Shown here in pieces: positions 1 to 13,037 of a stretch of DNA of 13,037 nt. Every line of letters starts with the position of its first letter. Within the stretch, counting starts at the first letter, position 1. The position numbers and the translations under genes are program-made. The stretch comes from a virus (lineage: Duplodnaviria > Heunggongvirae > Uroviricota > Caudoviricetes): IMG/VR virus record IMGVR_UViG_2617270938_000002. The stretch is one strand, 5' to 3'. Under the pieces are notes generated by a model. The model was given only the letters and a program-made list of their open reading frames with translations. It was not told the DNA's origin and made no database searches.

Positions 1-531
1 TGATGCCGTTCCTGCGCTGGAAGACGCTGACTGAGCCGACGACGCGGCCTGTCCGGCTGACGTGCTGGCTGCACGTGCTGAGCCTGCAGCATCAGTCGCA
101 CGGGTTGCCGCCTCACGGGCTGATGTGCCGGCATCGCTGGCTGACTTCTTCGCGGCTGCTGTGTTCTGCGCCACTGCGGACGCGTTACGCGCCACCTCTT
201 CCACCATCAGTTCAAAGCGGCGCAGTGCCTCCGGACGGGCATCATCCTCCGTCATGGCACCGAGAAAATCATTCAGCGTACCGGGTCGGGAATCTTCATA
301 CACGGTGATGGTCCCGGCATGTGACGGCGGGAATCCTTCCACCAACAGAATAACGCTGTACTGACCGTACTCAACGTCCATGCTGTAACGCCCGGCTTCA
401 TCCGGATTTTCAGATGCCACCGTGTTCACCACCACCGTGGTGCTGTTACGTTTTGCTTTCAGCTGGATTGTGCAGTTCTGTACCGGTTTACCTGCACCGT
501 CTTTCAGTACACCTGAAATCTTTACTGCCAT
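1..531 (-). CDS. stf: Side tail fibre protein Stf, N-terminal 177 codons; gene runs off the left edge of the window
   Basis: Minus-strand ATG at 531-529, in frame to position 1 with no stop. Translation begins MAVKISGVLKDGAGKPVQNCTIQLKAKRNSTTVVVNTVASENPDEAGRYSMDVEYGQYSV, matching the lambda Stf (orf-401) N-terminus as I recall it. GGGGTG Shine-Dalgarno-like motif upstream. Absent from the ORF track because it has no stop in the window. Confidence 0.8.
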   Translation of the reverse strand, partial: MAVKISGVLKDGAGKPVQNCTIQLKAKRNSTTVVVNTVASENPDEAGRYSMDVEYGQYSVILLVEGFPPSHAGTITVYEDSRPGTLNDFLGAMTEDDARPEALRRFELMVEEVARNASAVAQNTAAAKKSASDAGTSAREAATRATDAAGSARAASTSAGQAASSAQSASSSAGTAS

Positions 532-548
532 ATTCACCCCACAAAAAA

Positions 549-568
549 GCCCGCCTGAACCGGCGGGC
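549..568 (-). terminator. Rho-independent terminator downstream of lom
   Basis: Stem GCCCGCC (549-555) / GGCGGGC (562-568) with 6-nt loop; on the minus strand it is followed by a TTTTTT run (complement of the A-run at 543-548). Lies between the lom stop (596) and the stf start (531). Confidence 0.6.
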
Positions 569-595
569 TGTCATAACACTGTGTTACCTGGCTAA

Positions 596-1195
596 TCAGA
601 ACTTATAACCGACACCCATGATGAAACCGTCAGTGCGCCAGTCACCACTGCCGGAGCCTTCATAAGCAATATCAATGGCCACGGATTCGGTCGGGTTAAA
701 CTGCACGCCAGCCCCCCACGCCAGAGACGTGTTGCTGCGGCGACCGTCATCACTTCCGGTCAGCACGTCGTGCGTTTTCCCCTTGTTGTCAGTTACGCGG
801 AGATAATCCCCGGAGAAAGTCGACACACGGCTGTAAGCCACACCCGCCATCGCATACGCGCTGAACCATTCATTCACGCGCACAGACGGCCCCGCCATTA
901 CGCTGAACCAGCGGTTACGAACGGAATCTTCATGCCAGCGGGTATCGCTGTAACGGGTAAGCTGGCGATTCTTGTCTCCTGCATAGCTGAATGACGTCAC
1001 CAGCCCCAGTGTGTCCGTAAACTCATAACGGTATTTCACGTTAATCCCGTTCAGATCATCGCTGCCGGGAACGTTGGTCCGGGCATGAAGATACCCCGCG
1101 CTCAGCGTGGACTGATGTTCAGATGCCCATGCAGGCGCACCGGATACGGCCAGACAAATGGCTGCGGACAAAATGGCGGCATAAAGTTTACGCAT
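596..1195 (-). CDS. lom: Lom outer-membrane protein (Ail/Lom/PagC family), 199 aa
   Basis: ORF translation has a signal-peptide-like N-terminus ([24 protein letters not shown]) and a C-terminal aromatic residue (GVGYKF) typical of beta-barrel outer-membrane proteins; overall resemblance to lambda Lom; sits between J and stf as in lambda; GAGAGGT Shine-Dalgarno upstream. Confidence 0.9.
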
Positions 1196-1218
1196 AATTA
1201 CCTCTCGCTTTTCTGCAA

Positions 1219-1243
1219 TAAAAAAGGCACCATTTCTGGTGCC
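1219..1243 (-). terminator. Rho-independent terminator between J and lom
   Basis: Stem GGCACC (1226-1231) / GGTGCC (1238-1243) with flanking A-T pairs, followed on the minus strand by TTTTTTATT (complement of 1219-1225). Confidence 0.55.
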
Positions 1244-1264
1244 TTTATATGGGTTATAACAACT

Positions 1265-3685
<2,421 letters not shown>

Positions 3686-3741
3686 TCACGCTCCATAAAC
3701 GACAAAACCGCCCGCAGGCGGTTTCACATAAACGTTTTTCA

Positions 3742-4389
3742 TCAGCGACCAATCACCACAACCTGACCACCATCCCCTTCGTCTGCCGTGCTGATCTCCT
3801 GAGAGACCACCCGCGACCCCACGCGCATTTCACCGTACAGAACGGGCAGAACATTGCCCTGGGCAACCATGTTATCCAGTGACGAGAAATAGGTGTTCTG
3901 TTTGCCGTTATCTGTACTTGCTGCCGTGGGCGTCCTGGCTTTCGGTGCCAGCATCTGCGCCACTCCGCCCAGGATCATACTGGCCCCTGCCGCATACATG
4001 CCCGATACAGCCGCGGCACCCAGCCAGCCCACAGGGTTCCACCATGCCACCGCAATCAGCGCCGCCCCCAGCACCACCTGAAACACACCGCCACTTTTAG
4101 CTCCCGCCAGACGCGGCACGATGTGGATCACGGCACCATTTGCCAGCGGCTCATTAAGACGGGCAGACAATTCGGTTTCACCTGCATCACGCCCGGCAAT
4201 GCGTACCTGGTACCAGCCGTCGCTCAGTTTCTGACGAAACGCCGGGATCTGCATGGCCAGCGCCCGGATGGCTTCGGACCCCGTTTTCACTCGAAGGTCG
4301 ATGCGGCGGCCAAATCGTTGTAAATCCCCGTAAAGGCAGATGCGTGCCATGCCCGGTGACGCCAGAGGGAGTGTGTGCGTCGCTGCCAT
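3742..4389 (-). CDS. I: Tail assembly protein I, 215 aa
   Basis: Translation MAATHTLPLASPGMARICLYGDLQRFGRRIDLRVKTG ... NGKQNTYFSSLDNMVAQGNVLPVLYGEMRVGSRVVSQEISTADEGDGGQVVVIGR matches lambda I at both ends; correct position between K and J. Confidence 0.9.
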   Translation of the reverse strand: MAATHTLPLASPGMARICLYGDLQRFGRRIDLRVKTGSEAIRALAMQIPAFRQKLSDGWYQVRIAGRDAGETELSARLNEPLANGAVIHIVPRLAGAKSGGVFQVVLGAALIAVAWWNPVGWLGAAAVSGMYAAGASMILGGVAQMLAPKARTPTAASTDNGKQNTYFSSLDNMVAQGNVLPVLYGEMRVGSRVVSQEISTADEGDGGQVVVIGR

Positions 4390-5030
4390 TTGTCGGTGTA
4401 CCTCTCTCGTTTGCTCAGTTGTTCAGGAATATGGTGCAGCAGCTCGCCATCACCACAGTAAATGGCGGCATGATTCGGCACCGATGAACCAAAACAGCAC
4501 AGCAGCACATCGCCCGGTTGTGCTGATGACAACGGCACCTGATACAGCCCTGTGGCCTCCAGATTATCCAGATAGAGATTCTGACCGTGACGCCACCAGT
4601 CATCCCCGCGATGAAAATCCGGCATCTCAATCCCCGCCAGATGATAAGCATCCCGGAACAGCGTGTAACAGTCCGTCACCCCGTGCTCAAAGCGCCGCCC
4701 GGTGAGATGCGGCACACAGCGGAACTTATGAATCGTCCCCCGGCAGACCAGCCACCACGGCAAATCACTCTGCACCTGCAGCCGCCGGTCGGCCTCACTC
4801 AGCCAGGGCAGACCACCGGGGTGGCTGTGGACCAGTGCCACAATCTCTCCCTGCATTTCTGCACTCAGCCAGTCCTCCGGCGACATCCGGAAATACGCCT
4901 CCGGCTCACCGGAGATATTCACGCAGGGAAAATATCTTTCCCCCTCCGGTGTTCTCACCACGAAGCCGCACGACTCCGCTGGCGCACATCGCCGGGCGTG
5001 CGCCAGAATCGCTGATTCTGTCTCTGTCAT
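4287..5030 (-). CDS. K: Tail assembly protein K (MPN/JAMM plus NlpC/P60 domains), 247 aa from the ATG at 5030
   Basis: JAMM motif HSHPGGLPWLSEAD (HxHx7Sx2D) and an NlpC/P60-like Cys...His arrangement (TDCYTLF ... NHAAIY). Overlaps I by 103 bp, the same length I recall for the lambda K/I overlap. The ORF-track ORF begins at a GTG at 5039; the lambda-annotated start would correspond to the internal Met at 4886. Confidence 0.85.
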   Translation of the reverse strand: MTETESAILAHARRCAPAESCGFVVRTPEGERYFPCVNISGEPEAYFRMSPEDWLSAEMQGEIVALVHSHPGGLPWLSEADRRLQVQSDLPWWLVCRGTIHKFRCVPHLTGRRFEHGVTDCYTLFRDAYHLAGIEMPDFHRGDDWWRHGQNLYLDNLEATGLYQVPLSSAQPGDVLLCCFGSSVPNHAAIYCGDGELLHHIPEQLSKRERYTDKWQRRTHSLWRHRAWHASAFTGIYNDLAAASTFE

Positions 5031-5035
5031 GGGAT

Positions 5036-5734
5036 TCACTGCGAAAGTTTGTTAATGGAAAGGAAGCCGCCAAAGTTGCCGACGTTATTGCGAAACTTAC
5101 AGCCGCTCAGGCATTTGCTGCATTTATCCTTCGTGATATCGGACGTCGGCTGATCATATTCATCCGCGACCGCCGGACCGTGATAACCGCACTCATCACC
5201 GCGATAGGTCCAGGTGCAGGTGTTGGCCAGCATGATACGTCCCGGAAAAACGGCACCGTCCGTTTCCGTCGGCGTGGACAGTACAAAAGAGGCACTCACC
5301 GCGCTCAGTTCGCTGCACTGCTCGATGCGCCAGCGGCTGATCACCTCCTGCTCCGGATCGGCGTCACTGTTTCCGTTGACGAAGTTCACCGCATCCAGAA
5401 AACGGGCGTAAACCTTACGCCGGACCACCGTTCCTCCGACCAGACTCTGCAGGTCTTCCGCCATCCCGGTGACCATGCCGTGCAGGTTAGAAACCGTCAG
5501 TGTCGGACGGGCAGCACTGCCCTTGCCGTTCAGTTCAAATCCCGTCCCCTGAATGGGATACGCCTGATACTGTCGCCCCTGCCAGGTGACCGGCTCACCT
5601 TTTTCGTTCTGCTCATTACAGAAAAAATAACGTTCTCCACCGACCTCTGTCAGATCGATTTCCCAGAGCACCACCTGGGCTGACTGAGTGAGGCGTGTCG
5701 TCTCATGATGTGTTTCCTGTGGAATATCCTGCAT
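5036..5734 (-). CDS. L: Minor tail protein L, 232 aa
   Basis: Translation MQDIPQETHH...VVLWEIDLTEVGGERYFFCNEQNEKGEPVTWQGRQYQAYPIQG...CSKCLSGCKFRNNVGNFGGFLSINKLSQ matches lambda L; same length as lambda L. Confidence 0.9.
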   Translation of the reverse strand: MQDIPQETHHETTRLTQSAQVVLWEIDLTEVGGERYFFCNEQNEKGEPVTWQGRQYQAYPIQGTGFELNGKGSAARPTLTVSNLHGMVTGMAEDLQSLVGGTVVRRKVYARFLDAVNFVNGNSDADPEQEVISRWRIEQCSELSAVSASFVLSTPTETDGAVFPGRIMLANTCTWTYRGDECGYHGPAVADEYDQPTSDITKDKCSKCLSGCKFRNNVGNFGGFLSINKLSQ

Positions 5735-5743
5735 CAGAGACTC

Positions 5744-6073
5744 CTATGCCACGACCTGTTCAAAATCTGCCGTTATGGTTACCCACAACGCCCCCACGCT
5801 TGCCGACCATTTACGACAAACCACCCTGATCGGCTTCCAGTCATAAGGTGGCGTCCACTGAAATGCGCGGACGCCACCGTGCCGTTCCAGAAAGGCTTTT
5901 AAAGATGGGTGTTCACATTTACGAACACGTATCGTCACGCTGTAAGTCGACAACTGGTTATTCAGTCCCGCCGCACGACGCTGTTCATAACCATCGCCCA
6001 GCTTCACTGTCACCACTTTCGGCTCTGATACCACATTCATATCCGGGCGCACTTTCCAGTGAAACGTCTCCAT
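5744..6073 (-). CDS. M: Minor tail protein M, 109 aa
   Basis: Translation METFHWKVRPDMNVVSEPKVVTVKLGDGYEQRRAAGLNNQL... matches lambda M; same length; start overlaps the H-fragment stop (TAATG). Confidence 0.9.
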   Translation of the reverse strand: METFHWKVRPDMNVVSEPKVVTVKLGDGYEQRRAAGLNNQLSTYSVTIRVRKCEHPSLKAFLERHGGVRAFQWTPPYDWKPIRVVCRKWSASVGALWVTITADFEQVVA

Positions 6074-7083
6074 TACCGATATGCTCCACTTAACCGACCA
6101 CCATCACGGGCCTGCTGTTGCATAAAGTCCGCTGCCGCTTTTTTCCCAAGGTCATAAACCACCTTCAGGGCAGCCGGACCTATCTGCCCGTTCGTGCCAT
6201 CGTTATTGATCTCGATGTTGTACTGCGGGGCAAACATCGCCATACCTGAACCACCAATATCCGCCACAACCCCCAGCTTACCGTCAGCACCACGACGCAG
6301 TGGCAGAATGGCTTCAGGTCCAGCTTCCCCCATCACACCCGCGCCTTTTGCAAAAGCAAAAAACGTCGGACGGTTAACCACCGTGCCACTGTAACGACTC
6401 AAATCAGCAGACTGATAAATCCCCCCATTGGCATTCAGGGAAAGGCTGCTGAGATCAAATCCCAGTACACTGCCAATCCCTTTTATCGATTTCATCATGG
6501 TTGCCTGCGCCAGGATTTTCGCCATATCTGACAGCACCGAAGAGGTGAAGGATTTGAAGTTGAGTTTGCCGGTAGTGACAAAAGTTGCCAGGCCATTTCC
6601 CATGTTGCTGAAGGCTGACGAGAACCCCTGTTCTGCTGTTCCTGCCGTATTGTCTGCATCCACGGTAAAATCCTGAAATGCACGCAGGACTCCGTTTTTC
6701 CAGTTACCCTGCACAACTTCAAGCTGTTGCCAGTAACGGCGATTCTCATTCAGTTGTCGGTTCAGGCTCTCCGTCAGCGCCTGCTCGGCCTTTCTGTAGT
6801 CATCCGTGTTATATGTCCCTTTCTGCTCACTATCCCGCCTCAACTGCTCCAGCTGTTGCTGGTATTTCTGGCGAAGACTCAGTTGTACCTGATATCGCTG
6901 CCGCTGCTGATCACCCATACCGCCAATAACCCCGCCAAGCATCATGCCTTTCGGTGACATCAGAGTGTCTATCCATCCGGCACGGTTAGCCAGCGTTATC
7001 CCGGATCCCCTCACAGACGGATTGCGCCCGGAGCGTGTCGCATTGTGGTCATGTTCTCGCTGTGCCAGTCGGAATGAGGCCAC
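6073..7083 (-). pseudogene. H: Tail tape-measure protein H, C-terminal fragment only (N-terminal part of the gene absent)
   Basis: The C-terminal part of the 336-aa ORF (INNDGTNGQIGPAALKVVYDLGKKAAADFMQQQARDGG) resembles the lambda H C-terminus and is followed directly by M. Lambda H is 853 aa, but only about 1 kb of gene is present here and the ORF's N-terminal residues do not look like tape-measure sequence. The upstream limit of the fragment is uncertain. Confidence 0.75.
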
Positions 7084-7368
7084 TGGCAGCCTTTTTCACG
7101 AAGTAACCAGCTTTCAAGACATTCCACGCCACCAGCACGACGGATCACTGCCTCATCGCGGAACACGGCCCGAACGGCAGGATCATCCGCCAGCGGTTGT
7201 GATGCCGCCGGAACGGCACCACTGGCGAAAGATGAATAACGCTCCGGCTCAGGCTCCAGCAGGACACGCCCCTGCATAAACAGGGGCATCAGCTCTGAAC
7301 CTGGCCTGAACAATACGATCCCCATACGCGGGGCAATTTCAGGGGTCAGTAGTGCTCTCACGGTCACC

Positions 7369-8166
7369 TCAATGAACGGTATCGAGCAGCTTTAACAGCT
7401 CAGTGAATCGGGATTCGAAGAAATGCGGCTGCGTCTCGCGCGGATTTGCAGGACTGGTGATGTTCTTGCCGAACATGCAGCCTTTCGCCGTCAGCGACCA
7501 GAATTTTTTGATGTTGTTAATCGCTGTACGGCTGTATCGTTCGCGCTGTTCGACGATCCCCAGCTTCGCCATCTGGTGATATGCCTGATTAGCCGTCAGG
7601 CGGATACCATACTGCTTCAGCAGTGCACTCAGTGACAGCGTGGGGCGGCTTGAGCCATCAGGCGCGTCAGCAGGAGCATCAATGGCATAACGCGGTGCCA
7701 GATTCGGTAAGCCAACAGCCTCCTGGAGTTTCTGACAGGCCCCAAGCACAGATGAGTTAGACAGATTTAACTCCCGGCGCATAAAGTCCAGCAGAATCAC
7801 ACCAGCCTTCATCTTGTCAGCAGCCTGTCCGGATAATTTTTCCGGTGCGCTGGTTACCATGTCGAAAGTACGGATCACCTTAAGATGGAATGACGGGCTT
7901 ATCCACATTGCATAGGCATACACCAGTTCTTTGCAGACATACGTCCCCTGGTTATTTCCGCCACGAATAACGTTAACTGGCTCTATATTGACCGAGTTGC
8001 AAATCTGCAACTCGCTTATTAAACGTTCAGTTTGCTCATTGCGGAGCCAGAATGCAGGCTTATGCTTATCCAGAGAACCGGCAGCCCTGTGAAGATCGTT
8101 CAGGCTGTAACGACCATAAGCATCACGACGAACTTCAATACCATCAATGACCATCAGATTATTCAT
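7369..8166 (-). CDS. KilA-N domain protein, 265 aa (possible antirepressor-type protein)
   Basis: N-terminal region MNNLMVIDGIEVRRDAYGRYSLNDLHRAAG...KPAFWLRNEQTERLI...GTYVCKELVYAYAMWISPSFHLKVI has the pattern I associate with KilA-N/APSES-type DNA-binding domains; strong Shine-Dalgarno AAGAGGAGAAA upstream of the ATG at 8166. Family assignment is from memory only. Confidence 0.6.
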   Translation of the reverse strand: MNNLMVIDGIEVRRDAYGRYSLNDLHRAAGSLDKHKPAFWLRNEQTERLISELQICNSVNIEPVNVIRGGNNQGTYVCKELVYAYAMWISPSFHLKVIRTFDMVTSAPEKLSGQAADKMKAGVILLDFMRRELNLSNSSVLGACQKLQEAVGLPNLAPRYAIDAPADAPDGSSRPTLSLSALLKQYGIRLTANQAYHQMAKLGIVEQRERYSRTAINNIKKFWSLTAKGCMFGKNITSPANPRETQPHFFESRFTELLKLLDTVH

Positions 8167-8216
8167 ACTTCGTTTCTCCTCTTAATCGGGCGGCTCCCCC
8201 CGCCGTTTTCTCGTAC

Positions 8217-8360
8217 TTACTGATAGTGATCTCGACCTTCCCTTCCGGGATATCCCAGCATGGTTGCCACCTCCTGATTGGTTGGCGGAAAGCCACGCTC
8301 TTTCTGATAAGAAATCAGCATATCCAGCACCTGCTGCTGGCATTGAGTTAACGTCGTCAT
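8217..8360 (-). CDS. 47-aa small ORF resembling the LexA N-terminal DNA-binding domain
   Basis: Translated by hand (not in the ORF track, which omits ORFs below about 60 aa): MTTLTQCQQQVLDMLISYQKERGFPPTNQEVATMLGYPGREGRDHYQ. Compare LexA N-terminus ...[34 protein letters not shown]. ATG at 8360 overlaps the stop of the upstream gene (TAATG). Could be a gene fragment. Confidence 0.4.
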   Translation of the reverse strand: MTTLTQCQQQVLDMLISYQKERGFPPTNQEVATMLGYPGREGRDHYQ

Positions 8361-8848
8361 TACGCCCCCACGTAATTCCCTGACAGATACCACTCATCAC
8401 CCGATACAGCGCGCTTGCTGCTTTTCCGTAAACACTGCTCACGACGCGCCAGAAAATTGTTTCGTTCTGGCTGGGAGTGGCTTTCACGGAATGCCTCCAT
8501 CCACACCGTTGCAGCTCGACGGTATAAGCCCCTGGACTCCAGTTCTTCCGCCTGGCGGGTCAGGCACAAAATCACCCGCGGGTCGTTAGTGCCGACATAG
8601 AAATTGCGCACAGGTCTGGTTTCACGAACTGGTTGTGGTTCCGGATCCTGCGCTCTCTCAGTCAGGCGCGGGAAATGTCTGTGTGTATCTCCTTCACAAC
8701 GGTGAGCCACACGCCCACTCTGACGTAACTTGCTTGCTGACTGCAGAACGCGCTGCCGTGAGTAACCTGCAAAAGCATCCGCAATGTCTCCGGAAGTACA
8801 GCCCGGATGGGCTTCAATGAATTTCTGAACGTCATTCAAAAGACTCAT
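8360..8848 (-). CDS. Putative PerC-family regulator, about 162 aa
   Basis: C-terminal segment LESRGLYRRAATVWMEAF resembles the conserved PerC/Pch motif (L-E-x-x-G-L-W-R-R-A-A-x-x-W) as I remember it. ATG at 8848 has an AGGGGG Shine-Dalgarno 5-6 nt upstream, inside the 3' end of the O-like gene; the ORF track starts it at a GTG at 8854. Confidence 0.5.
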   Translation of the reverse strand: MSLLNDVQKFIEAHPGCTSGDIADAFAGYSRQRVLQSASKLRQSGRVAHRCEGDTHRHFPRLTERAQDPEPQPVRETRPVRNFYVGTNDPRVILCLTRQAEELESRGLYRRAATVWMEAFRESHSQPERNNFLARREQCLRKSSKRAVSGDEWYLSGNYVGA

Positions 8849-8850
8849 GA

Positions 8851-9792
8851 TCACCCCCTGAATCCTGCCGGGATCTGGCTGTAGTCCACGTTGTCGTAAC
8901 TGGCTTTGAAGTACGGGTCTTCACGTTTTTCTGTGTGCGTGCTGACGGACGGCGATAAGCGCAGGGAAAGCTCATCCCATTTTTCCCGCAACTTCGACGG
9001 GCTGAGCACGTTACGGCACCAGAACGGATCGCGGCTGACGCGGCTGTACATCTCGCAGATTTGTTTGTGAGTACGACCATCCTGCACACACATCAGGCGA
9101 ATTTCGTTTGCCCATGCTGTCCAGTTCGGTTCTTTGGGACGAACCACCTCGCCGTCACATTCGGCGGCCTGCTCGTACAGGGCAATGATTTTTTTCCAGA
9201 GCCACTGTGCGCAGGTCAAATCATCCTGCGTTCCCCACTGGCGCTTTTTAGGGCTGAATACAACCGCATCAGGATGGCGAGTTAAAAAATCCTGTTCAGC
9301 CGTCTGCGTGTCCGGTTGCGAAGCGTCCGGACGAGAAGGTTTTTTATCTGACGGATCATGTTTTGATTTTACTGACGGATCCCCGCCAGATTCTGACGGG
9401 TGAAAACCCGCTTTTTTGCCAGATTTCGACGCATCAAATTTTGACGTGTCAGATTTTGATGCGTCAGATTTTGACGGGTCAGAATCTGACAGTTGAGAAA
9501 ATGCCGCTGCCTGAAGCTTCGCAACGTTAAGCTGATAAACATTCGACGCATTGCGGTTACCCTGGCGACGCGCCTTACGCGTTAACCAGCCTTCTGCTTC
9601 CAGCCGTGCGATAGCCGTTCTGACGGTACTCATCCCCGCGCCAATCTGACGGGCAATGGTTTCAATTGATGGCCAGCACACACCTTCGTCATTACTGAAA
9701 TCAGCCAGGCGGGCCATAATTGCCACGCTGGATAATTTCATGCCTGATGCAGCGCAACCATCCCATACATAGCCGGTTAATTTAGTGCTCAT
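8851..9792 (-). CDS. Phage replication initiator, lambda O-like (N-terminal DNA-binding domain, repetitive linker, conserved C-terminal domain), 313 aa
   Basis: N-terminal winged-helix-like segment (SVAIMARLADFSNDEGVCWPSIETIARQIGAGMSTVRTAIARLEAEGWL); internal low-complexity repeat SDSDPSKSDASKSDTSKFDASKSGKK encoded by tandem DNA repeats; position immediately after the cro/cII-like genes. Functional call is by architecture and position. Confidence 0.65.
   Translation of the reverse strand: MSTKLTGYVWDGCAASGMKLSSVAIMARLADFSNDEGVCWPSIETIARQIGAGMSTVRTAIARLEAEGWLTRKARRQGNRNASNVYQLNVAKLQAAAFSQLSDSDPSKSDASKSDTSKFDASKSGKKAGFHPSESGGDPSVKSKHDPSDKKPSRPDASQPDTQTAEQDFLTRHPDAVVFSPKKRQWGTQDDLTCAQWLWKKIIALYEQAAECDGEVVRPKEPNWTAWANEIRLMCVQDGRTHKQICEMYSRVSRDPFWCRNVLSPSKLREKWDELSLRLSPSVSTHTEKREDPYFKASYDNVDYSQIPAGFRG
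9364..9493. repeat. Iteron-like tandem repeats inside the O-like gene (candidate replication origin)
   Basis: Five contiguous 15-bp repeats at 9419-9493 (consensus about TCAGATTTTGACGNG, including TCAGAATCTGA, which is a perfect palindrome), plus further copies at 9387-9400 and a degenerate one at 9364-9378. Confidence 0.55.
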
Positions 9793-9801
9793 GACCGACC
9801 T

Positions 9802-10140
9802 CTACTTCCCTGAATTTACGACGAAACTGTTCGAGCGGGCTGAAGCACTCATGCTCATAGCCTTCGCGGAGGTAGATAACCCGTTGTGTTTCCGGCTCCC
9901 AACGAATGACTCTGACGGGCACTCCGTAGTGATCTTTGAACCAGCGGTTAACTTGTCGCAAAGGACTGTCTCCTTCTGCCGGTTGAAATCACCCACAGCC
10001 CACTCTGCAAAGCTGTGGGTTACAATTTCCCTGTCACCTGGTACATTTACTGCATAGCAATACTCCACCTTCGCTTTTCCACCCGGTACAGGAAGCGCAA
10101 TCAGTTGCGAGCGACGGTAGTGTGTTGTTAAACTGTTCAT
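9802..10140 (-). CDS. Hypothetical protein, 112 aa
   Basis: ORF tightly packed between neighbours: its start overlaps the upstream gene stop (ATGA at 10137-10140) and its 3' end supplies a GAGGT Shine-Dalgarno for the O-like gene. The C-terminal third is low complexity, so the call is weak. Confidence 0.4.
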
Positions 10141-10700
10141 GCGTTAGTTTCTCCACAGTCACGACACGCCACGGCGCCCGGAGCTGCACACTCGCGGGCG
10201 TCATTACTTTCTGAAATGCAAAAAATTTTGTAGACCAGTGCTGCATGCTCCTGCAGCTTCGAAATTGAGAGGTACAGCTCGTCGTTAATTGCTGTCTTCT
10301 CATTCGGTTCCACTACACCGTCTTCAATTGCTGAACGAATCTGTTTTGAATAACTGCCGATCTGTTCAATGACTTCCAGCAGGCGCTGGTTTATATCGGC
10401 GTTCTCTACTTCCTCAATTTCAGGAAGCGATACGAACACCCCACCAGCAGACTGTGCGACAGCATCCGCAATGTAGTGAGTGCCAGCCGCGCGCTGTAAA
10501 ACCATTGCCCATCCCAGCGGGAAAATCTGATCGCCATAGGCACGAAGGCGGTTAAATAATGCGTTCTCTGTTACATCCAGCCAGTCAGCTGCTTCAGCGT
10601 AACCACCCGGCAACGCTGCGATAGTTTTTCTGACAGCTTTCACGTACCACTCAGGCTGTTTTTCTACTTTCCAGTGATACTTACCCACGGTTAGCCTCAT
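10137..10700 (-). CDS. Hypothetical regulatory protein at the cII position (possibly CII/YdaT-like), 187 aa, Cys-rich C-terminus
   Basis: Second gene of the rightward operon, directly after the cro-like gene. C-terminus [17 protein letters not shown] contains CxxC-like spacing. Family assignment is uncertain; an alternative GTG start at 10688 has a better Shine-Dalgarno. Confidence 0.45.
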
Positions 10701-10731
10701 CGTTCTGTGGTTAAAAATTGAAGGTGTTCTG

Positions 10732-10932
10732 TTAATCTTTCGGATAGATATCCGGTCTTAAGTCAGATTTCGTAATTGCACCTGACGTGCATTGCTCAAG
10801 TTTTTTAGCCAGCACAAAACTGGCTTTTTTATAACCATTGAAAACCAGCCGTAAGTAGCCAGGTGTTGAGCCAACTTTTCCGGCCAACTCGCCCTGCTGT
10901 TCTTTGGTTAAAGAGTCCCAATACGCTTTCAT
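10732..10932 (-). CDS. Cro-like / YdaS-family HTH regulator, 66 aa
   Basis: MKAYWDSLTKEQQGELAGKVGSTPGYLRLVFNGYKKASFVLAKKLEQCTSGAITKSDLRPDIYPKD; the C-terminal LRPDI motif and HTH-like core resemble YdaS-type Cro analogues (from memory). ATG at 10932 is preceded by GGAGGT at a 9-nt spacing. The ORF-track version (10732..11037) would overlap the cI start, so the internal start is preferred. Confidence 0.6.
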   Translation of the reverse strand: MKAYWDSLTKEQQGELAGKVGSTPGYLRLVFNGYKKASFVLAKKLEQCTSGAITKSDLRPDIYPKD

Positions 10933-11022
10933 ACAATATGTACCTCCGGTATACATATTACATGATTGAAATGAACCTTCAAGATACTTGTACCTTATCG
11001 GTACAAAGGTTTTAATTTCGTT
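10933..11022. promoter_or_regulatory. Immunity-region switch (OR-like): divergent promoters plus two 17-bp operator-like sites
   Basis: Sites TGTACC-tccgg-TATACA (10939-10955) and TGTACC-ttatc-GGTACA (10989-11005; the arms extend to a TTGTACC/GGTACAA inverted repeat). Candidate pR on minus strand: -35 TTGAAG (10977-10982), -10 TAATAT (10955-10960), 16-bp spacer. Candidate pRM on plus strand: -35 TTGTAC (10988-10993), -10 TTTAAT (11011-11016), 17-bp spacer, which would give a near-leaderless cI mRNA. Confidence 0.5.
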
Positions 11023-11697
11023 ATGAAAACAATCCATGACATCCGGCGGTCTAACGCCAGAAAACTGAGAGATGGTGTTGGCGGAAATTCATCCTTTGCC
11101 ACCATGATTGATCGCGAGCCAACCCAAACCAGCAGGTTTATGGGGGATGGCGCTACTAAAAATATCGGTGACAGCATGGCACGGCACATCGAAAAATGTT
11201 TCGACCTGCCTGTCGGATGGCTTGATCAAGAACACCAGACAACGAACATCACAAAAAAACCTGATGTTTCAATCACTAACAAACAAATAACGTTAGTCCC
11301 TGTCATATCATGGGTACAGGCCGGAGCATGGAAAGAAGTTGGCTATTCTGAGGTTGATTTGAGCACAGCAGAAACGTATCCCTGCCCTGTACCCTGTGGC
11401 GAAATGACTTATATCTTGCGGGTGATTGGTGATTCAATGATTGATGAGTACCGCCCTGGAGACATGATTTTTGTTGATCCCGAAGTCCCTGCCTGCCACG
11501 GTGACGACGTTATTGCATTGATGCACGATACAGGCGAAACCACCTTCAAGCGATTGATAGAAGATGGAACACAGCGTTATCTCAAAGCATTAAACCCAAA
11601 CTGGCCTGAGCCTTACATTAAGATTAACGGTAATTGCTCTATAATTGGTACAGTGATTTTCTCGGGAAAACCAAGAAGATACACAATAAAGGCCTAA
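11023..11697 (+). CDS. CI-like prophage repressor with C-terminal S24 (LexA-like) autopeptidase domain, 224 aa
   Basis: C-terminal domain has an Ala-Gly cleavage-site candidate (WVQAGAWKE), the catalytic Ser context (VIGDSMIDEY) and the Lys context (TFKRLIEDG), closely paralleling lambda CI (GNSM ... FKKL). Divergently arranged with the cro-like gene. Confidence 0.8.
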   Translation: MKTIHDIRRSNARKLRDGVGGNSSFATMIDREPTQTSRFMGDGATKNIGDSMARHIEKCFDLPVGWLDQEHQTTNITKKPDVSITNKQITLVPVISWVQAGAWKEVGYSEVDLSTAETYPCPVPCGEMTYILRVIGDSMIDEYRPGDMIFVDPEVPACHGDDVIALMHDTGETTFKRLIEDGTQRYLKALNPNWPEPYIKINGNCSIIGTVIFSGKPRRYTIKA

Positions 11698-11709
11698 TCA
11701 ATATTTATG

Positions 11710-11733
11710 AACCTGCTTCGGCAGGTTTTTTTA
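11710..11733 (+). terminator. Rho-independent terminator after the cI-like gene
   Basis: Stem AACCTGC (11710-11716), loop TTCG, stem GCAGGTT (11721-11727), followed by a T-run through 11732. Confidence 0.7.
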
Positions 11734-11736
11734 TAC

Positions 11737-11769
11737 TTGACAATGTACCCATGAGATACATAATGTATC
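11737..11769 (+). promoter_or_regulatory. pL-like early-left promoter with overlapping operator
   Basis: Consensus -35 TTGACA (11737-11742); -10 candidate CATAAT (11759-11764) with a 16-bp spacer; operator-like TGTACC-catga-GATACA (11744-11760) with the same architecture as the two OR-region sites; perfect 15-bp palindrome GATACATAATGTATC (11755-11769) over the -10. Confidence 0.55.
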
Positions 11770-12202
11770 TAAAAGAAACATAACACAGGCAAGATTAAAA
11801 CAAAATTTGGTTGTAACACGGCGTATGGCACATGCGTCGTTAGCGGTCTGGTGACGTTAAAGGGGACAATCCACTCCTTGCTCGAGCAAACAAACCAGGT
11901 AGCCGGAATGTGCAAGTCAATGATGATGCTGATAAGACGCCTAACCAGCGTGGCGATTCGGTTTGACGCCTGGGAAGAGACCAGGGTGCAACGATGAGGG
12001 CATTTATGGAACCGCGACAAAGTGTGGTGCCGTAACTGGCTAAGTGCTCTCAGCGTTGTGGTGAATGCGCAGACTGATGCGCGAAAGACATTGCAGCTAT
12101 TGCGGAAAAGAGCTGTTCGGCGGGGCAATTAAACGCCCGTGAGAGTCTGAAATAACCGCAAGCCGGAGATCAGCACCGGTCACCACAACAGCCACTGCTT
12201 TG

Positions 12203-12337
12203 GCGGTACCAGTTTGTACACTTGCTTCCGGCTGGTACCGCTCTTTTTACAAAACAGAGAAGAGCATCACCGGACGACGGGCTCATAACCCAATCCATCC
12301 GGGCGGCTGCCACCGCAGGTGTTCTTCTCTGTTTTGT
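12203..12337 (+). promoter_or_regulatory. Structured leader elements upstream of the first early-left gene: two inverted repeats and a boxA-like motif
   Basis: Inverted repeat A: GCGGTACCAG (12203-12212) / CTGGTACCGC (12232-12241). BoxA-like CGCTCTTTTTA (12239-12249). Inverted repeat B: ACAAAACAGAGAAGAGC (12249-12265) / GTTCTTCTCTGTTTTGT (12321-12337), 17 bp with one G-T position, enclosing 55 nt. Function not established. Confidence 0.4.
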
Positions 12338-12385
12338 GGAGAAACTAATCGGCCTTGCAGGGTCGATATGATGAGGAGCAGCAAA

Positions 12386-12748
12386 ATGGCTAGCGAACGC
12401 AGTACTGATGTGCAGGCATTTATCGGGGAGCTGGACGGCGGCGTATTTGAAACCAAAATCGGCGCAGTTCTCAGTGAAGTCGCTTCCGGTGTGATGAACA
12501 CGAAAACCAAAGGTAAGGTCTCACTCAACCTGGAAATCGAACCATTTGATGAGAACCGTGTGAAAATCAAACACAAACTCTCATATGTTCGCCCGACTAA
12601 CCGCGGGAAAATTTCCGAAGAAGACACCACCGAAACGCCGATGTATGTCAATCGCGGTGGTCGCCTGACTATTCTGCAGGAAGACCAGGGACAATTACTG
12701 ACTCTTGCCGGTGAACCTGACGGAAAACTCCGCGCAGCAGGTCATTAA
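12386..12748 (+). CDS. Hypothetical early-left protein, 120 aa
   Basis: ATG at 12386 preceded by GAGGAG (12373-12378) at a 7-nt spacing. The ORF-track ORF 12200..12748 begins at a TTG and its first 62 residues are Cys/Arg-rich junk overlapping the leader stems, so the internal ATG is preferred. No family recognised. Confidence 0.6.
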   Translation: MASERSTDVQAFIGELDGGVFETKIGAVLSEVASGVMNTKTKGKVSLNLEIEPFDENRVKIKHKLSYVRPTNRGKISEEDTTETPMYVNRGGRLTILQEDQGQLLTLAGEPDGKLRAAGH

Positions 12749-12813
12749 TATCGTTCTTAATAAACTGATTATTTATCTCATCACTGAATATCTTTATATA
12801 GTGAGGACTTATT

Positions 12814-13037
12814 ATGTCTCAGAACTTAGACGCAACCGCAATTAATCAAATCCATGCCCTTATTTCTGCTCAGGGTGTTAATGAAATTATCAGTAAGATT
12901 GGTGCCGATGCTGTGGCATTGCCTGAGAATTTCCGCATTCATGATCTGGAAAAATTTAATTTAAATCGCTTCCGTTTCCGTGGTGCGCTTTCCACTGCCA
13001 GCATCGATGACTTTACCCGTTATTCTAAAGATCTTGC
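12814..13037 (+). CDS. Hypothetical protein, N-terminal 74 codons; gene runs off the right edge of the window
   Basis: ATG at 12814 preceded by GAGGA at about 7 nt; open to the window end ([74 protein letters not shown]...). Not in the ORF track because there is no stop in the window. No family recognised. Confidence 0.55.

Follow-up and report, generated by a model that had tools for sequence, protein, structure and literature searches.

Rac, Qin, DLP12 and e14 are cryptic (defective) lambdoid prophages of Escherichia coli K-12. Defective lambdoid prophages of E. coli are described in general terms in the review literature (PMC6379469), where grounded prophages are treated as subject to progressive deletion and to recombination with lambdoid phages. 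In-frame deletions in the tape-measure gene shorten the tails of lambda (Katsura & Hendrix 1984, as cited in PMC5099701) and of TP901-1 (PMC5099701). Among intact lambdoid siphophages, Ayreon (MF807953.1) and mEp460 (NC_019716) are collinear with both arms of the locus described here, including its repressor region and tail-tip genes (97–99% identity).

The window (the whole stretch of DNA that was analysed, 13,037 bp) is one whole draft contig of E. coli 3-105-05_S3_C3. Both contig ends lie inside repeated prophage genes, and neither attachment sites nor chromosomal flanks are present on the contig. The element is, with high confidence, the remnant of a lambda-like prophage (mEp460/Ayreon type, with e14-type immunity) of this strain and carries a ~16-kb deletion scar at 7012/7013. 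Four deletions are found within 13 kb (seam A, 7012/7013; seam B, 6917–6921; the seam in J, 1417–1426; seam D, 8251–8252), with overlaps of 2–5 nt; this is prophage decay of the ordinary kind. The features at the largest scar are the following:

7012..7013, unstranded: seam A, breakpoint of the ~16.2-kb deletion with a 2-nt overlap (CA), placed from BLAST end points and alignment
7369..8166, minus strand: intact KilA-N domain gene, 265 aa (Pfam PF04383, E 2.2e-26; phrog_129, E 6.5e-128)
7014..7367, minus strand: 5′ fragment of a gene of the DUF968/YdfU family (HNH-like), with 118 codons if read from the GTG at 7367 and 116 if read from 7361, the PGAP start
7011..7013, minus strand: TGA, formed at the seam, that ends the truncated DUF968 gene (translation, three-way alignment and wild-type sequence)

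The window was compared by megablast with 5,426 complete E. coli genomes and 50,697 phage records. In thousands of hits, matches to the left arm stopped at 7013 and matches to the right arm began at 7012 every time. Seam A joins nt 350 of the DUF968 gene (Ayreon 38791) to nt 794 of the tape-measure protein (TMP) gene (Ayreon 10282, codon 265). A three-way alignment was made of the window, locus L004 (for TMP) and locus L003 (for DUF968). Base by base against these intact parents, TMP identity runs through ...GGATCCCCTCA and DUF968 identity runs from CACAGACGG..., 2 nt being common to both arms. The seam is not a chance arrangement, because the arms are 97–100% identical over kilobases to genes that lie 16–17 kb apart in intact relatives. 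The first-pass annotation had proposed, within 6950–7370, a deletion junction that joins the early-right region to the interior of the tape-measure gene; alignment with intact lambdoid genomes, the check that it had suggested, confirms this junction and maps it to 7012/7013.

The same annotation had suggested looking for microhomology or an insertion sequence (IS) scar at the seam; the former is present as the 2-nt CA, the latter is absent. No IS end, terminal inverted repeat or target-site duplication was found at seam A, each base there coming from one parent, and a repeat scan of 6500–7600 returned short chance-level repeats only, with no IS-like or inverted repeats at the seam; an IS scar was rejected on these grounds. 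The parents are unrelated on either side of the CA, with no direct repeat of tens of bases, and no structured RNAs were hit in Rfam. A BamHI site (GGATCC, 7003–7008) lies 4 nt from the seam; it was considered as a cloning scar and rejected, being native to TMP in L004 and in Ayreon.

Window positions 1–7013 and 7012–13037 are collinear with Ayreon and with an intact prophage of E. coli WP5-W18-ESBL-11. In Ayreon, 1–7013 corresponds to 19707–10282 and 7012–7971 to 38791–37832, in the same order and orientation; the two seam points lie 16.2 kb apart in Ayreon and 16,945 bp apart in the WP5-W18-ESBL-11 prophage, collinear in both. Ayreon 38792–44708 and 1–10281 have no match anywhere in the window, and the annotation of these intervals lists Q, holin, lysin, Rz, terminase, portal, capsid, Z, U, V, G and T. 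In full, the loss comprises the last two thirds of DUF968, Q (an antiterminator), a gene for a DNA methylase, holin, endolysin, Rz, cos, both terminase subunits, portal, a protease/capsid fusion, head–tail connectors, Z, U, V, G, T and TMP codons 1–264. Unlike the element, Ayreon keeps these 16.2 kb, full-length TMP (1021 aa) and J, and the rusA and LexA-DBD genes in intact form; its replication-gene segment differs from the window (~8926–10127) by mosaicism. The right arm is 99.7% identical to the WP5-W18-ESBL-11 prophage, whose tail genes are only 87–96% identical to the window, and the left arm is 97–99% identical to Ayreon and H9Ecoli. Such differing closest relatives of the two arms are normal for lambdoid mosaicism and would also fit two parents.

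On the right of the seam, KilA-N is the last intact early-right gene; it equals WP_032248148.1 in L003 in length (DNA identity 99.7–99.8%), and its end at 7369 had been placed correctly before. The 118-aa open reading frame (ORF) at 7011–7367 matches phrog_96 over profile positions 1–117 of 334 (E 3.4e-50), and at 99–100% DNA identity it corresponds to the 5′-terminal third of DUF968 in many intact E. coli prophages and phages; window 7012–7700 is 100% identical in six complete E. coli genomes. The intact DUF968 protein has 329 aa, with PF06147 at aa 160–326, wholly past the break. The 118-aa ORF has no Pfam hit: the DUF968 domain is absent and the conserved N-terminal third alone is present. 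The ORF is a real gene truncated to a pseudogene and not, as had been supposed, a fusion artefact spanning the seam; TMP DNA supplies no more than the final base of its TGA. In this stop codon, TG (7013–7012) is the microhomology common to both parents and A (7011) derives from TMP; the intact gene has TGC at the same position, encoding Cys117 of a CWHC motif. A GTG in the TMP frame (7014–7012) overlaps the new stop as GTGA. Of the two findings that together would refute the first-pass annotation, one is the case, 7084–7368 being a normal conserved gene of intact phages, and the other is not, a complete TMP gene being absent. A 116-aa product with the same end as the DUF968 stub (P0004) occurs on many contigs; it was considered as the same seam in other strains and rejected, being due to a TGC-to-TGA nonsense change within a contiguous DUF968 gene in L011 and L015 and to a contig end at that point in the other loci.

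On the left of the seam, the TMP gene is left in two pieces:

6073..7083, minus strand: seam-spanning chimeric ORF, 336 aa, GTG start, made of the DUF968 start and two TMP pieces
6922..7011, minus strand: short internal TMP segment from the TMP_2 domain, residues 266–296 of the Ayreon protein (1021 aa)
6917..6921, unstranded: seam B, in-frame 1332-bp (444-codon) TMP deletion with a 5-nt overlap, ATACC (GGTAT on the gene strand)
6073..6918, minus strand: C-terminal 281 codons of TMP, from Met741 (PF09718, E 7.2e-22; phrog_6747, E 9.9e-167)

The chimeric ORF takes codons 1–23 from DUF968 DNA, in a frame other than that of the gene, has the seam within codon 24 and continues in TMP for codons 25–336. 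PHROG matches to TMP start only at aa 19–24 (phrog_5918 and phrog_20739 match aa 19–56), and Tape_meas_lam_C lies at aa 126–200. Homology to TMP, which had been taken to be confined to the C-terminal part of this ORF, in fact begins at aa 24–25 (nt 7013). Window 6917–7013 matches Ayreon 10378–10282 (97.9%) and L004 14246–14342 (99.0%), and 6073–6918 is 97–98% identical to Ayreon and L004, with the native start and N-terminus absent; the database gene call at this place is a 281-aa product. Missing from the 1021-aa reference are residues 1–265 and 297–740. Tape_meas_lam_C is the sole TMP domain detected, TMP_2 (aa 228–426 of the intact protein) and TMP_4 being cut or deleted; on this domain content, TMP is a remnant here and not a functional protein.

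Among complete E. coli genomes, seam B is contiguous elsewhere only in VE-V11-M and VE-V10-F. VE-V11-M has the shortened TMP as an open ORF of 587 aa in an otherwise complete set of tail genes; because such a prophage shares seam B, this seam is probably older than the ~16-kb deletion. The 1332-bp difference was also considered as an IS2-like insertion in the long TMP allele, as suggested by its size and 5-nt flanking repeat; this was rejected, the segment carrying in-frame TMP_2 and TMP_4 domains and being contiguous in 1803 of 1838 E. coli records.

The remaining features of the window are a tail-tip block, an early and immunity region, and two further seams:

5744..6073, minus strand: minor tail protein M homologue, full length (PF05939, E 1e-39; length as in L004 and Ayreon)
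5036..5734, minus strand: minor tail protein L homologue, full length (PF05100, E 1.8e-99)
4287..5039, minus strand: tail tip protein K homologue (JAB + NlpC/P60, Pfam), full length
3742..4389, minus strand: tail assembly protein I homologue, full length (PF06805, E 1.4e-23)
1265..3682, minus strand: tip attachment protein J, shortened in frame by an internal deletion (805 aa versus 1137–1165)
8251..8252, unstranded: seam D, 538-bp out-of-frame deletion with a 2-nt overlap (BLAST and alignments)
8360..11697, unstranded: what is left of the early and immunity region (99.7% identity to the intact WP5-W18-ESBL-11 prophage)
11023–11697, plus strand: S24-peptidase repressor
10137–10700, minus strand: CII/YmfL, with a Cro-like gene also present in the region
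8851–9792, minus strand: HTH_36 replication-type protein
8360–8854, minus strand: PerC

The gene call for the K homologue has 247 aa and matches the 744-bp genes of relatives. The seam in J (1417–1426) has a 3-nt exact overlap, AAT, within an imperfect 10-nt repeat; in Pfam, Ig_J_second is cut at 40/105 and Ig_GpJ_C begins at 78/135, and the seam is contiguous in none of the complete E. coli genomes. At seam D, ~110 nt from the start of the LexA-DBD gene are fused to ~67 nt from the end of rusA, the former surviving as a 47-aa LexA_DNA_bind gene call. The first-pass annotation had held that everything from the replication region to the middle of H is missing; this stands for Q, lysis, terminase, portal, head and major tail genes, whereas the nin-like region is partly kept (PerC, the LexA-DBD/RusA remnant, KilA-N and the 5′ end of DUF968).

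Seam A is best accounted for by one illegitimate, microhomology-level (2-nt) recombination inside the integrated prophage, removing about 16.2–16.9 kb. Replication slippage or template switching, or end-joining after a double-strand break, may have been the mechanism; the 2-nt overlap is too short to pin it down. The deletions in J, within TMP and in LexA-DBD/rusA would be further steps of the same decay. On a contig lacking att sites and flanks, parsimony favours one prophage as the source of both arms.

The arms could instead have been brought together by illegitimate recombination between two co-resident lambdoid prophages, an early-region donor and a tail-tip donor, with the chromosome between them deleted or inverted. 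The best relatives do differ (right arm, WP5-W18-ESBL-11, 99.7%; left arm, Ayreon and H9Ecoli, 97–99%), multiple copies of such genes are common in E. coli genomes (median 2–3 places per genome), and the contig ends in repeated prophage genes, consistent with several lambdoid prophages in the genome. Arm order and orientation are, however, exactly those of single intact phages and prophages; early/tail mosaics are normal in the group, Ayreon alone having both arms at 97–99%; and an extra event would be required that the single-prophage model does not need. An origin from two prophages is accordingly considered unlikely.

The TMP site TATGGG (codons 740–741, window 6915–6921) is the end point of three different junctions, its partners being TMP codon 296, TMP codon ~370 and the terminase gene. 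Such a site might be a recombination hot spot or module boundary, so that decay is not purely random and scars like 7012/7013 create an SOS-driven fusion expressing the TMP C-terminal fragment together with M-L-K-I-J′-Lom, to the benefit of the host or a helper phage; we regard this as quite unlikely.

That two prophage regions were mis-joined into a chimeric contig in the 2014 short-read draft is very unlikely. The whole 13,037-bp draft contig consists of repeated prophage DNA only, and the two arms are adjacent in 0 of the 5,426 complete E. coli genomes (0 places covering at least 80% of the query). The comparison of the locus across related strains, as proposed in the first pass, was made on these genomes and revealed the junction in none. 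Scans for the exact 26-nt junction gave no hits in GTDB species-representative genomes, metagenome contigs or viral contigs either, and a literature search on the assembly and run accessions returned nothing. Against a mis-join, the arms share just 2 nt, whereas mis-joins use shared k-mers or overlaps of tens of bases; a separate pipeline (Logan, SRR1186721) also gives seams A, B and D, on a contig (SRR1186721_456) that covers window 3020–8280 with 4 mismatches; and the contig is recorded in 2 samples by the database. The isolate behind SRR1186721 may be the same one or a sibling; in that case the seam would be independently assembled but not independently sampled.

A selected functional fusion, in which TMP′, M, L, K, I, J′, lom and the side fibre are placed under an SOS-inducible early operon with translational coupling at GTGA and the tail-tip and outer-membrane proteins are used by the host or a helper phage, is extremely unlikely. 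In its favour, M, L, K, I and Lom have kept their full length, one strand carries every gene from the cro-like one through lom, GTGA is created by seam A, tail-tip genes are also kept by relatives after other deletions, and a terminator consensus scan of the coding strand from 8166 to 5744 found weak sites only (uninformative either way). Against it, most of the receptor-binding end of J is lost, and no tail or tailocin can result from a TMP without its N-terminus and with V, U, Z, G and T gone. A conserved, selected cassette is also hard to reconcile with the gene subsets retained by relatives, which vary (M, L and most of K are gone from EC19); seam A is known from one lineage only, and intact ORFs are expected anyway soon after a recent deletion.

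Under the preferred reading of a decayed single prophage, the element as it stands on this contig cannot, judged from its gene content, assemble virions; the earlier statement that it makes none on its own agrees with the absence of lysis, packaging, head and tail-shaft genes. Neither an F-type tailocin nor a self-sufficient tail particle is encoded, because V, U, Z, G, GT and the lysis cassette lie within the deleted interval and TMP is beheaded. The remnant would thus be incapable of lysis, DNA packaging and tail building, and would persist as a repressor-carrying cryptic prophage that, as a virus, is probably harmless to its host. The intact repressor may provide the host with immunity. The intact M-L-K-I-lom genes would be mere passengers or a reservoir for recombination; they may be donated to incoming lambdoid phages, and recombination of a helper phage with the tail-tip genes is plausible in the light of the literature. 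For annotation, the 116/118-aa "hypothetical protein" and the 281–336-aa "tape measure protein" on the contig are pseudogene fragments, and the element is properly scored as a defective prophage, not as a complete one.

Compared with the tape-measure deletions of lambda and TP901-1, seam B is likewise in frame (444 codons) and, in VE-V11-M, lies within an otherwise complete tail set, where by analogy it would give a shorter tail. Unlike those short-tail alleles, the shortened TMP of the window was later beheaded by seam A, which makes tail length irrelevant. Decay of this general region is common among related prophages. Three independently decayed ones, in E1620 (NZ_CM180509), VG48B2 (NZ_CP128584) and EC19 (NZ_CP060908, at thrW), share the early-region family and the tail-tip genes, and each has a large deletion of morphogenesis genes with partial genes left at the scar. 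Their breakpoints are not those of seam A: E1620 has terminase joined to TMP, VG48B2 has dam joined to tail gene Z and EC19 has DUF1441 joined to K, the DUF968-to-TMP join being absent from all three. Like Rac, Qin, DLP12 and e14, the element has kept its repressor, early genes and a tail/fibre block and has lost lysis and morphogenesis genes by internal deletions, with pseudogenes at the scars; the likeness to e14 extends to immunity genes annotated as ymfK/ymfT/ymfL. The breakpoints of the K-12 prophages are different, those of the element being lineage-specific as far as searched. The K-12 relics are also not known to be nearly as close to living phages as the element is (97–99% identity to Ayreon), which suggests that its decay is recent. 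With such close living relatives each deletion step can be reconstructed, and the element provides a clean, base-resolved case of stepwise prophage decay.

The window was found by sequence identity to be the entire 13,037-bp contig JNMO01000100.1 (assembly GCA_000700385.1), the J protein of which is KDU06527.1 of Escherichia coli 3-105-05_S3_C3. The long genes all lie on the minus strand, apart from the repressor and a few leftward early genes. In gene direction (right to left on the contig) the order is:

11023-11697, plus strand: S24-peptidase repressor
following the repressor: Cro-like gene, CII/YmfL gene, HTH_36 replication-type gene, PerC
8217-8360, minus strand (gene call): LexA-DBD stub, 47 aa
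8166-7369, minus strand: KilA-N
7367-7011, minus strand: 118-aa ORF
7083-6073, minus strand: tape-measure-like ORF
left end: minor tail genes M, L, K and I, shortened J, Lom and the start of the side tail fibre gene, in that order

The intact lambdoid phage Ayreon (MF807953.1, 44.7 kb, isolated on E. coli K12), in which both arms of the window are present, served as the reference. Two mosaic patches (7971-8093 and 8926-10127; part of KilA-N and a replication-gene segment) were diverged from Ayreon and 99.7-99.96% identical to the prophage of WP5-W18-ESBL-11, an illustration of module exchange in this phage group.

The join between the DUF968 gene and the tape-measure gene (TMP), referred to as seam A, was located by megablast searches with 6600-7700, 6850-7170 and the whole window as queries against 5,426 complete E. 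coli genomes and 50,697 phage records. Each time the alignments split at one place, with the tail side stopping at 7013 and the early side starting at 7012, and none of these records carried both sides adjacent to each other. Every base at the seam was explained by a three-way alignment of the window with the intact tape-measure gene of H9Ecoli and the intact DUF968 gene of WP5-W18-ESBL-11: the tape-measure-derived side reads ...CCCGGATCCCCTCA, the DUF968-derived side reads CACAGACGGATTGC..., and the parents overlap in the dinucleotide CA only. A repeat scan gave no IS end, inverted repeat or longer direct repeat at this position; a GGATCC motif 4 bases away is native tape-measure sequence. 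Seam A is a real deletion scar, a precise non-homologous join whose position is exactly mapped, in a lambdoid prophage that decayed recently.

Window 1-7013 aligned to Ayreon 19707-10282, save for two internal gaps, and window 7012-7971 aligned to Ayreon 38791-37832 on the same strand as the tail-arm match. The missing stretch corresponds to Ayreon 38792-44708 plus 1-10281 (16.2 kb in prophage order, circularly permuted). According to the Ayreon annotation, the lost genes are the 3' two thirds of the DUF968 gene, antiterminator Q, DNA methylase, holin, lysin, Rz, a late regulator, cos, the small and large terminase subunits, a W-like protein, portal, a ClpP-like protease/scaffold-capsid protein, a head-tail joining protein, Z, U, V, G and GT, and the 5'-terminal 793 nt of the tape-measure gene. 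None of the genes required for lysis, packaging, late transcription or the making of heads and tail shafts is left in the element, and the scar leaves two pseudogene stubs. The WP5-W18-ESBL-11 prophage, which appears to be intact and whose early region matches window 7012-13037 at 99.7% identity, has the two points in collinear order, separated by 16,945 bp. The first-pass annotation had proposed a deletion within 6950-7370 joining the early-right region to the tape-measure interior; this reading held, and the break points and base-level alignment placed the junction at 7012/7013, but the extent of the loss that it gave needs correction.

Recombination between two co-resident prophages is a less likely alternative origin of seam A: the closest relatives of the two arms differ, but such differences are typical of lambdoid mosaicism, and the collinearity of the arms favours a simple deletion. 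Replication slippage, template switching or the end-joining of a break could have produced a deletion of this kind. The contig is unlikely to be an assembly chimera, because de Bruijn and overlap assemblers do not make mis-joins through a 2-nt overlap and because a second, independent assembly agrees with it: Logan contig 456 (5,261 bp; run SRR1186721) corresponds to window 3020-8280, differing by four mismatches, and includes seam A together with two further seams, B (6917-6921, inside TMP) and D (8251-8252). Seam A is independently assembled, which does not imply independent sampling, as SRR1186721 may stem from the same isolate, a sibling colony or an unrelated strain. A literature search on the accessions gave no match.

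The 118-aa ORF had been regarded as a fusion artefact spanning the seam, a view not borne out by its phrog_96 match (profile positions 1-117 of 334, E 3.4e-50), DNA identity and alignment: it is the normal 5' end of a DUF968/YdfU-family gene, stopping at seam A. Six complete E. coli genomes match window 7012-7700 (this ORF and the 3' part of KilA-N) at 100% identity, and many phages, SfII, SfV, cdtI and Stx2c phages among them, do so at 97-99%. The PGAP start of the intact gene is the GTG equivalent to window 7361, which leaves 116 codons. Where the intact gene reads ...CGT CTG TGC TGG CAC (R L C W H), the window reads CGT CTG TGA, with TG from the shared dinucleotide and A from the tape-measure side; as this stop is formed by the join, the stub stops right at seam A and contains no residue of foreign origin. 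It lacks the CWHC motif and the DUF968 domain, which spans aa 160-326 of the intact protein (329 aa). A 116-aa DUF968 fragment was also found in loci from other E. coli samples (L011, 10001-10990; L015, 6731-7657), in which a TGC-to-TGA nonsense change at codon 117 (first Cys of CWHC), the same codon at which seam A makes its stop, splits the gene into 116-aa and 195-aa ORFs. Window 7011-7014 is GTGA, so that the TGA of the stub overlaps a GTG in the tape-measure frame; judged by sequence, this overlap could allow translational coupling into the TMP remnant, its use in the cell being hypothetical.

The ORF crossing seam A (7083-6073, 336 aa) consists of DUF968 DNA in the wrong frame (codons 1-23), a GTG straddling the seam (codon 24), and residues 25-55 and 56-336, equivalent to residues 266-296 and 741-1021, respectively, of the 1021-aa Ayreon tape-measure protein. 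The homology noted earlier in this ORF was confirmed, but its structure was revised to two TMP pieces starting at residue 25. At seam B, 91 nt from seam A, the Ayreon matches split (window 6917-7013 to 10378-10282; window 1424-6921 to 17204-11706), and a 1332-bp, 444-codon in-frame deletion therefore lies inside the remnant, with an overlap of 5 nt (GGTAT on the gene strand). The only complete E. coli genomes that carry this join uninterrupted are VE-V11-M and VE-V10-F; in the former, the shortened gene remains open as a 587-aa ORF and is preceded by T, G, V, U and Z, all intact. As in-frame TMP deletions lead to shorter tails (PMC5099701), seam B would have arisen in a still-functional phage, and it appears to be older than the large deletion. 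The RefSeq tape-measure call in VE-V11-M (NZ_AP027978.1) covers the last 281 aa only, although the 587-aa ORF (3224-4987 of the locus) is open back to T, and is probably an annotation under-call.

The tape-measure DNA kept left of seam B starts at TATGGGTGATCAG... in three different junctions (slash, start of the retained DNA):

GGCGG/TATGGG: window (6915-6921), VE-V11-M (~4068-4072) and VE-V10-F; partner, TMP codon 296
AACGA/TATGGG: VG48B2 (~6064-6070); partner near TMP codon 370, TMP intact at 654 aa
GGCCAGC/TATGGG: E1620 (~10124-10126); partner, terminase large-subunit gene, overlap TAT confirmed against an intact terminase allele

If end points fell at random in a 3-kb gene, two more would land within the same 7 nt with a probability of ~5e-6. 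The coincidence is partly explained by short repeats (GGTAT has six copies in the tape-measure gene) and by selection for in-frame products. Of 1838 E. coli records, 1803 are unbroken across this site (TMP codons 740-741), which may be either a hot spot for deletions or the boundary of a module.

Two further deletions were mapped. J (1265-3682, minus strand) lacks 996 bp relative to H9Ecoli and 1080 bp relative to Ayreon, in frame at 1417-1426, with the loss of most of the second Ig domain and most of the receptor-binding domain; the parents overlap exactly in 3 nt (AAT), which lie within an imperfect 10-nt repeat. This join occurred in no complete E. coli genome, and in seven such genomes J has another, shorter deletion at this position. 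Seam D is a 538-bp out-of-frame deletion, with a 2-nt overlap, that places the final ~67 nt of rusA directly after the first ~110 nt of the LexA-DBD gene and yields the 47-aa stub. Overlaps at all four scars on the contig are only 2-5 nt.

The remnant would yield no particles and would be inherited vertically, and its intact repressor may still confer immunity. Genes of prophage remnants in general are rescued by recombination into related phages (PMC6379469); full-length M, L, K, I and lom may be rescued in this way. Early-operon transcripts might run into the tail genes: the cro-like gene through lom are all on one strand, with only weak terminator-like matches between them. That seam A is a selected functional fusion is unsupported, with J crippled, TMP beheaded, different gene sets kept in relatives, and the DUF968-to-TMP join found in the lineage of the window only.

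Three relatives share with the window the immunity/early-region family and a large deletion of morphogenesis genes, but each has its own deletion: in E1620 a terminase large-subunit fragment runs into the 3'-terminal 846 bp of the tape-measure gene (with one further deletion), in VG48B2 a truncated dam gene is joined to tail gene Z, and in EC19, integrated at thrW (tRNA-Thr) next to proA, DUF1441 is joined to a K remnant. EC19 also carries an Avs2 defence gene just past the tail-fibre genes. The morphogenetic middle has thus been lost recurrently, with the early region and the tail-tip/fibre genes kept, and seam A is a fresh instance of a very well-known kind of event.
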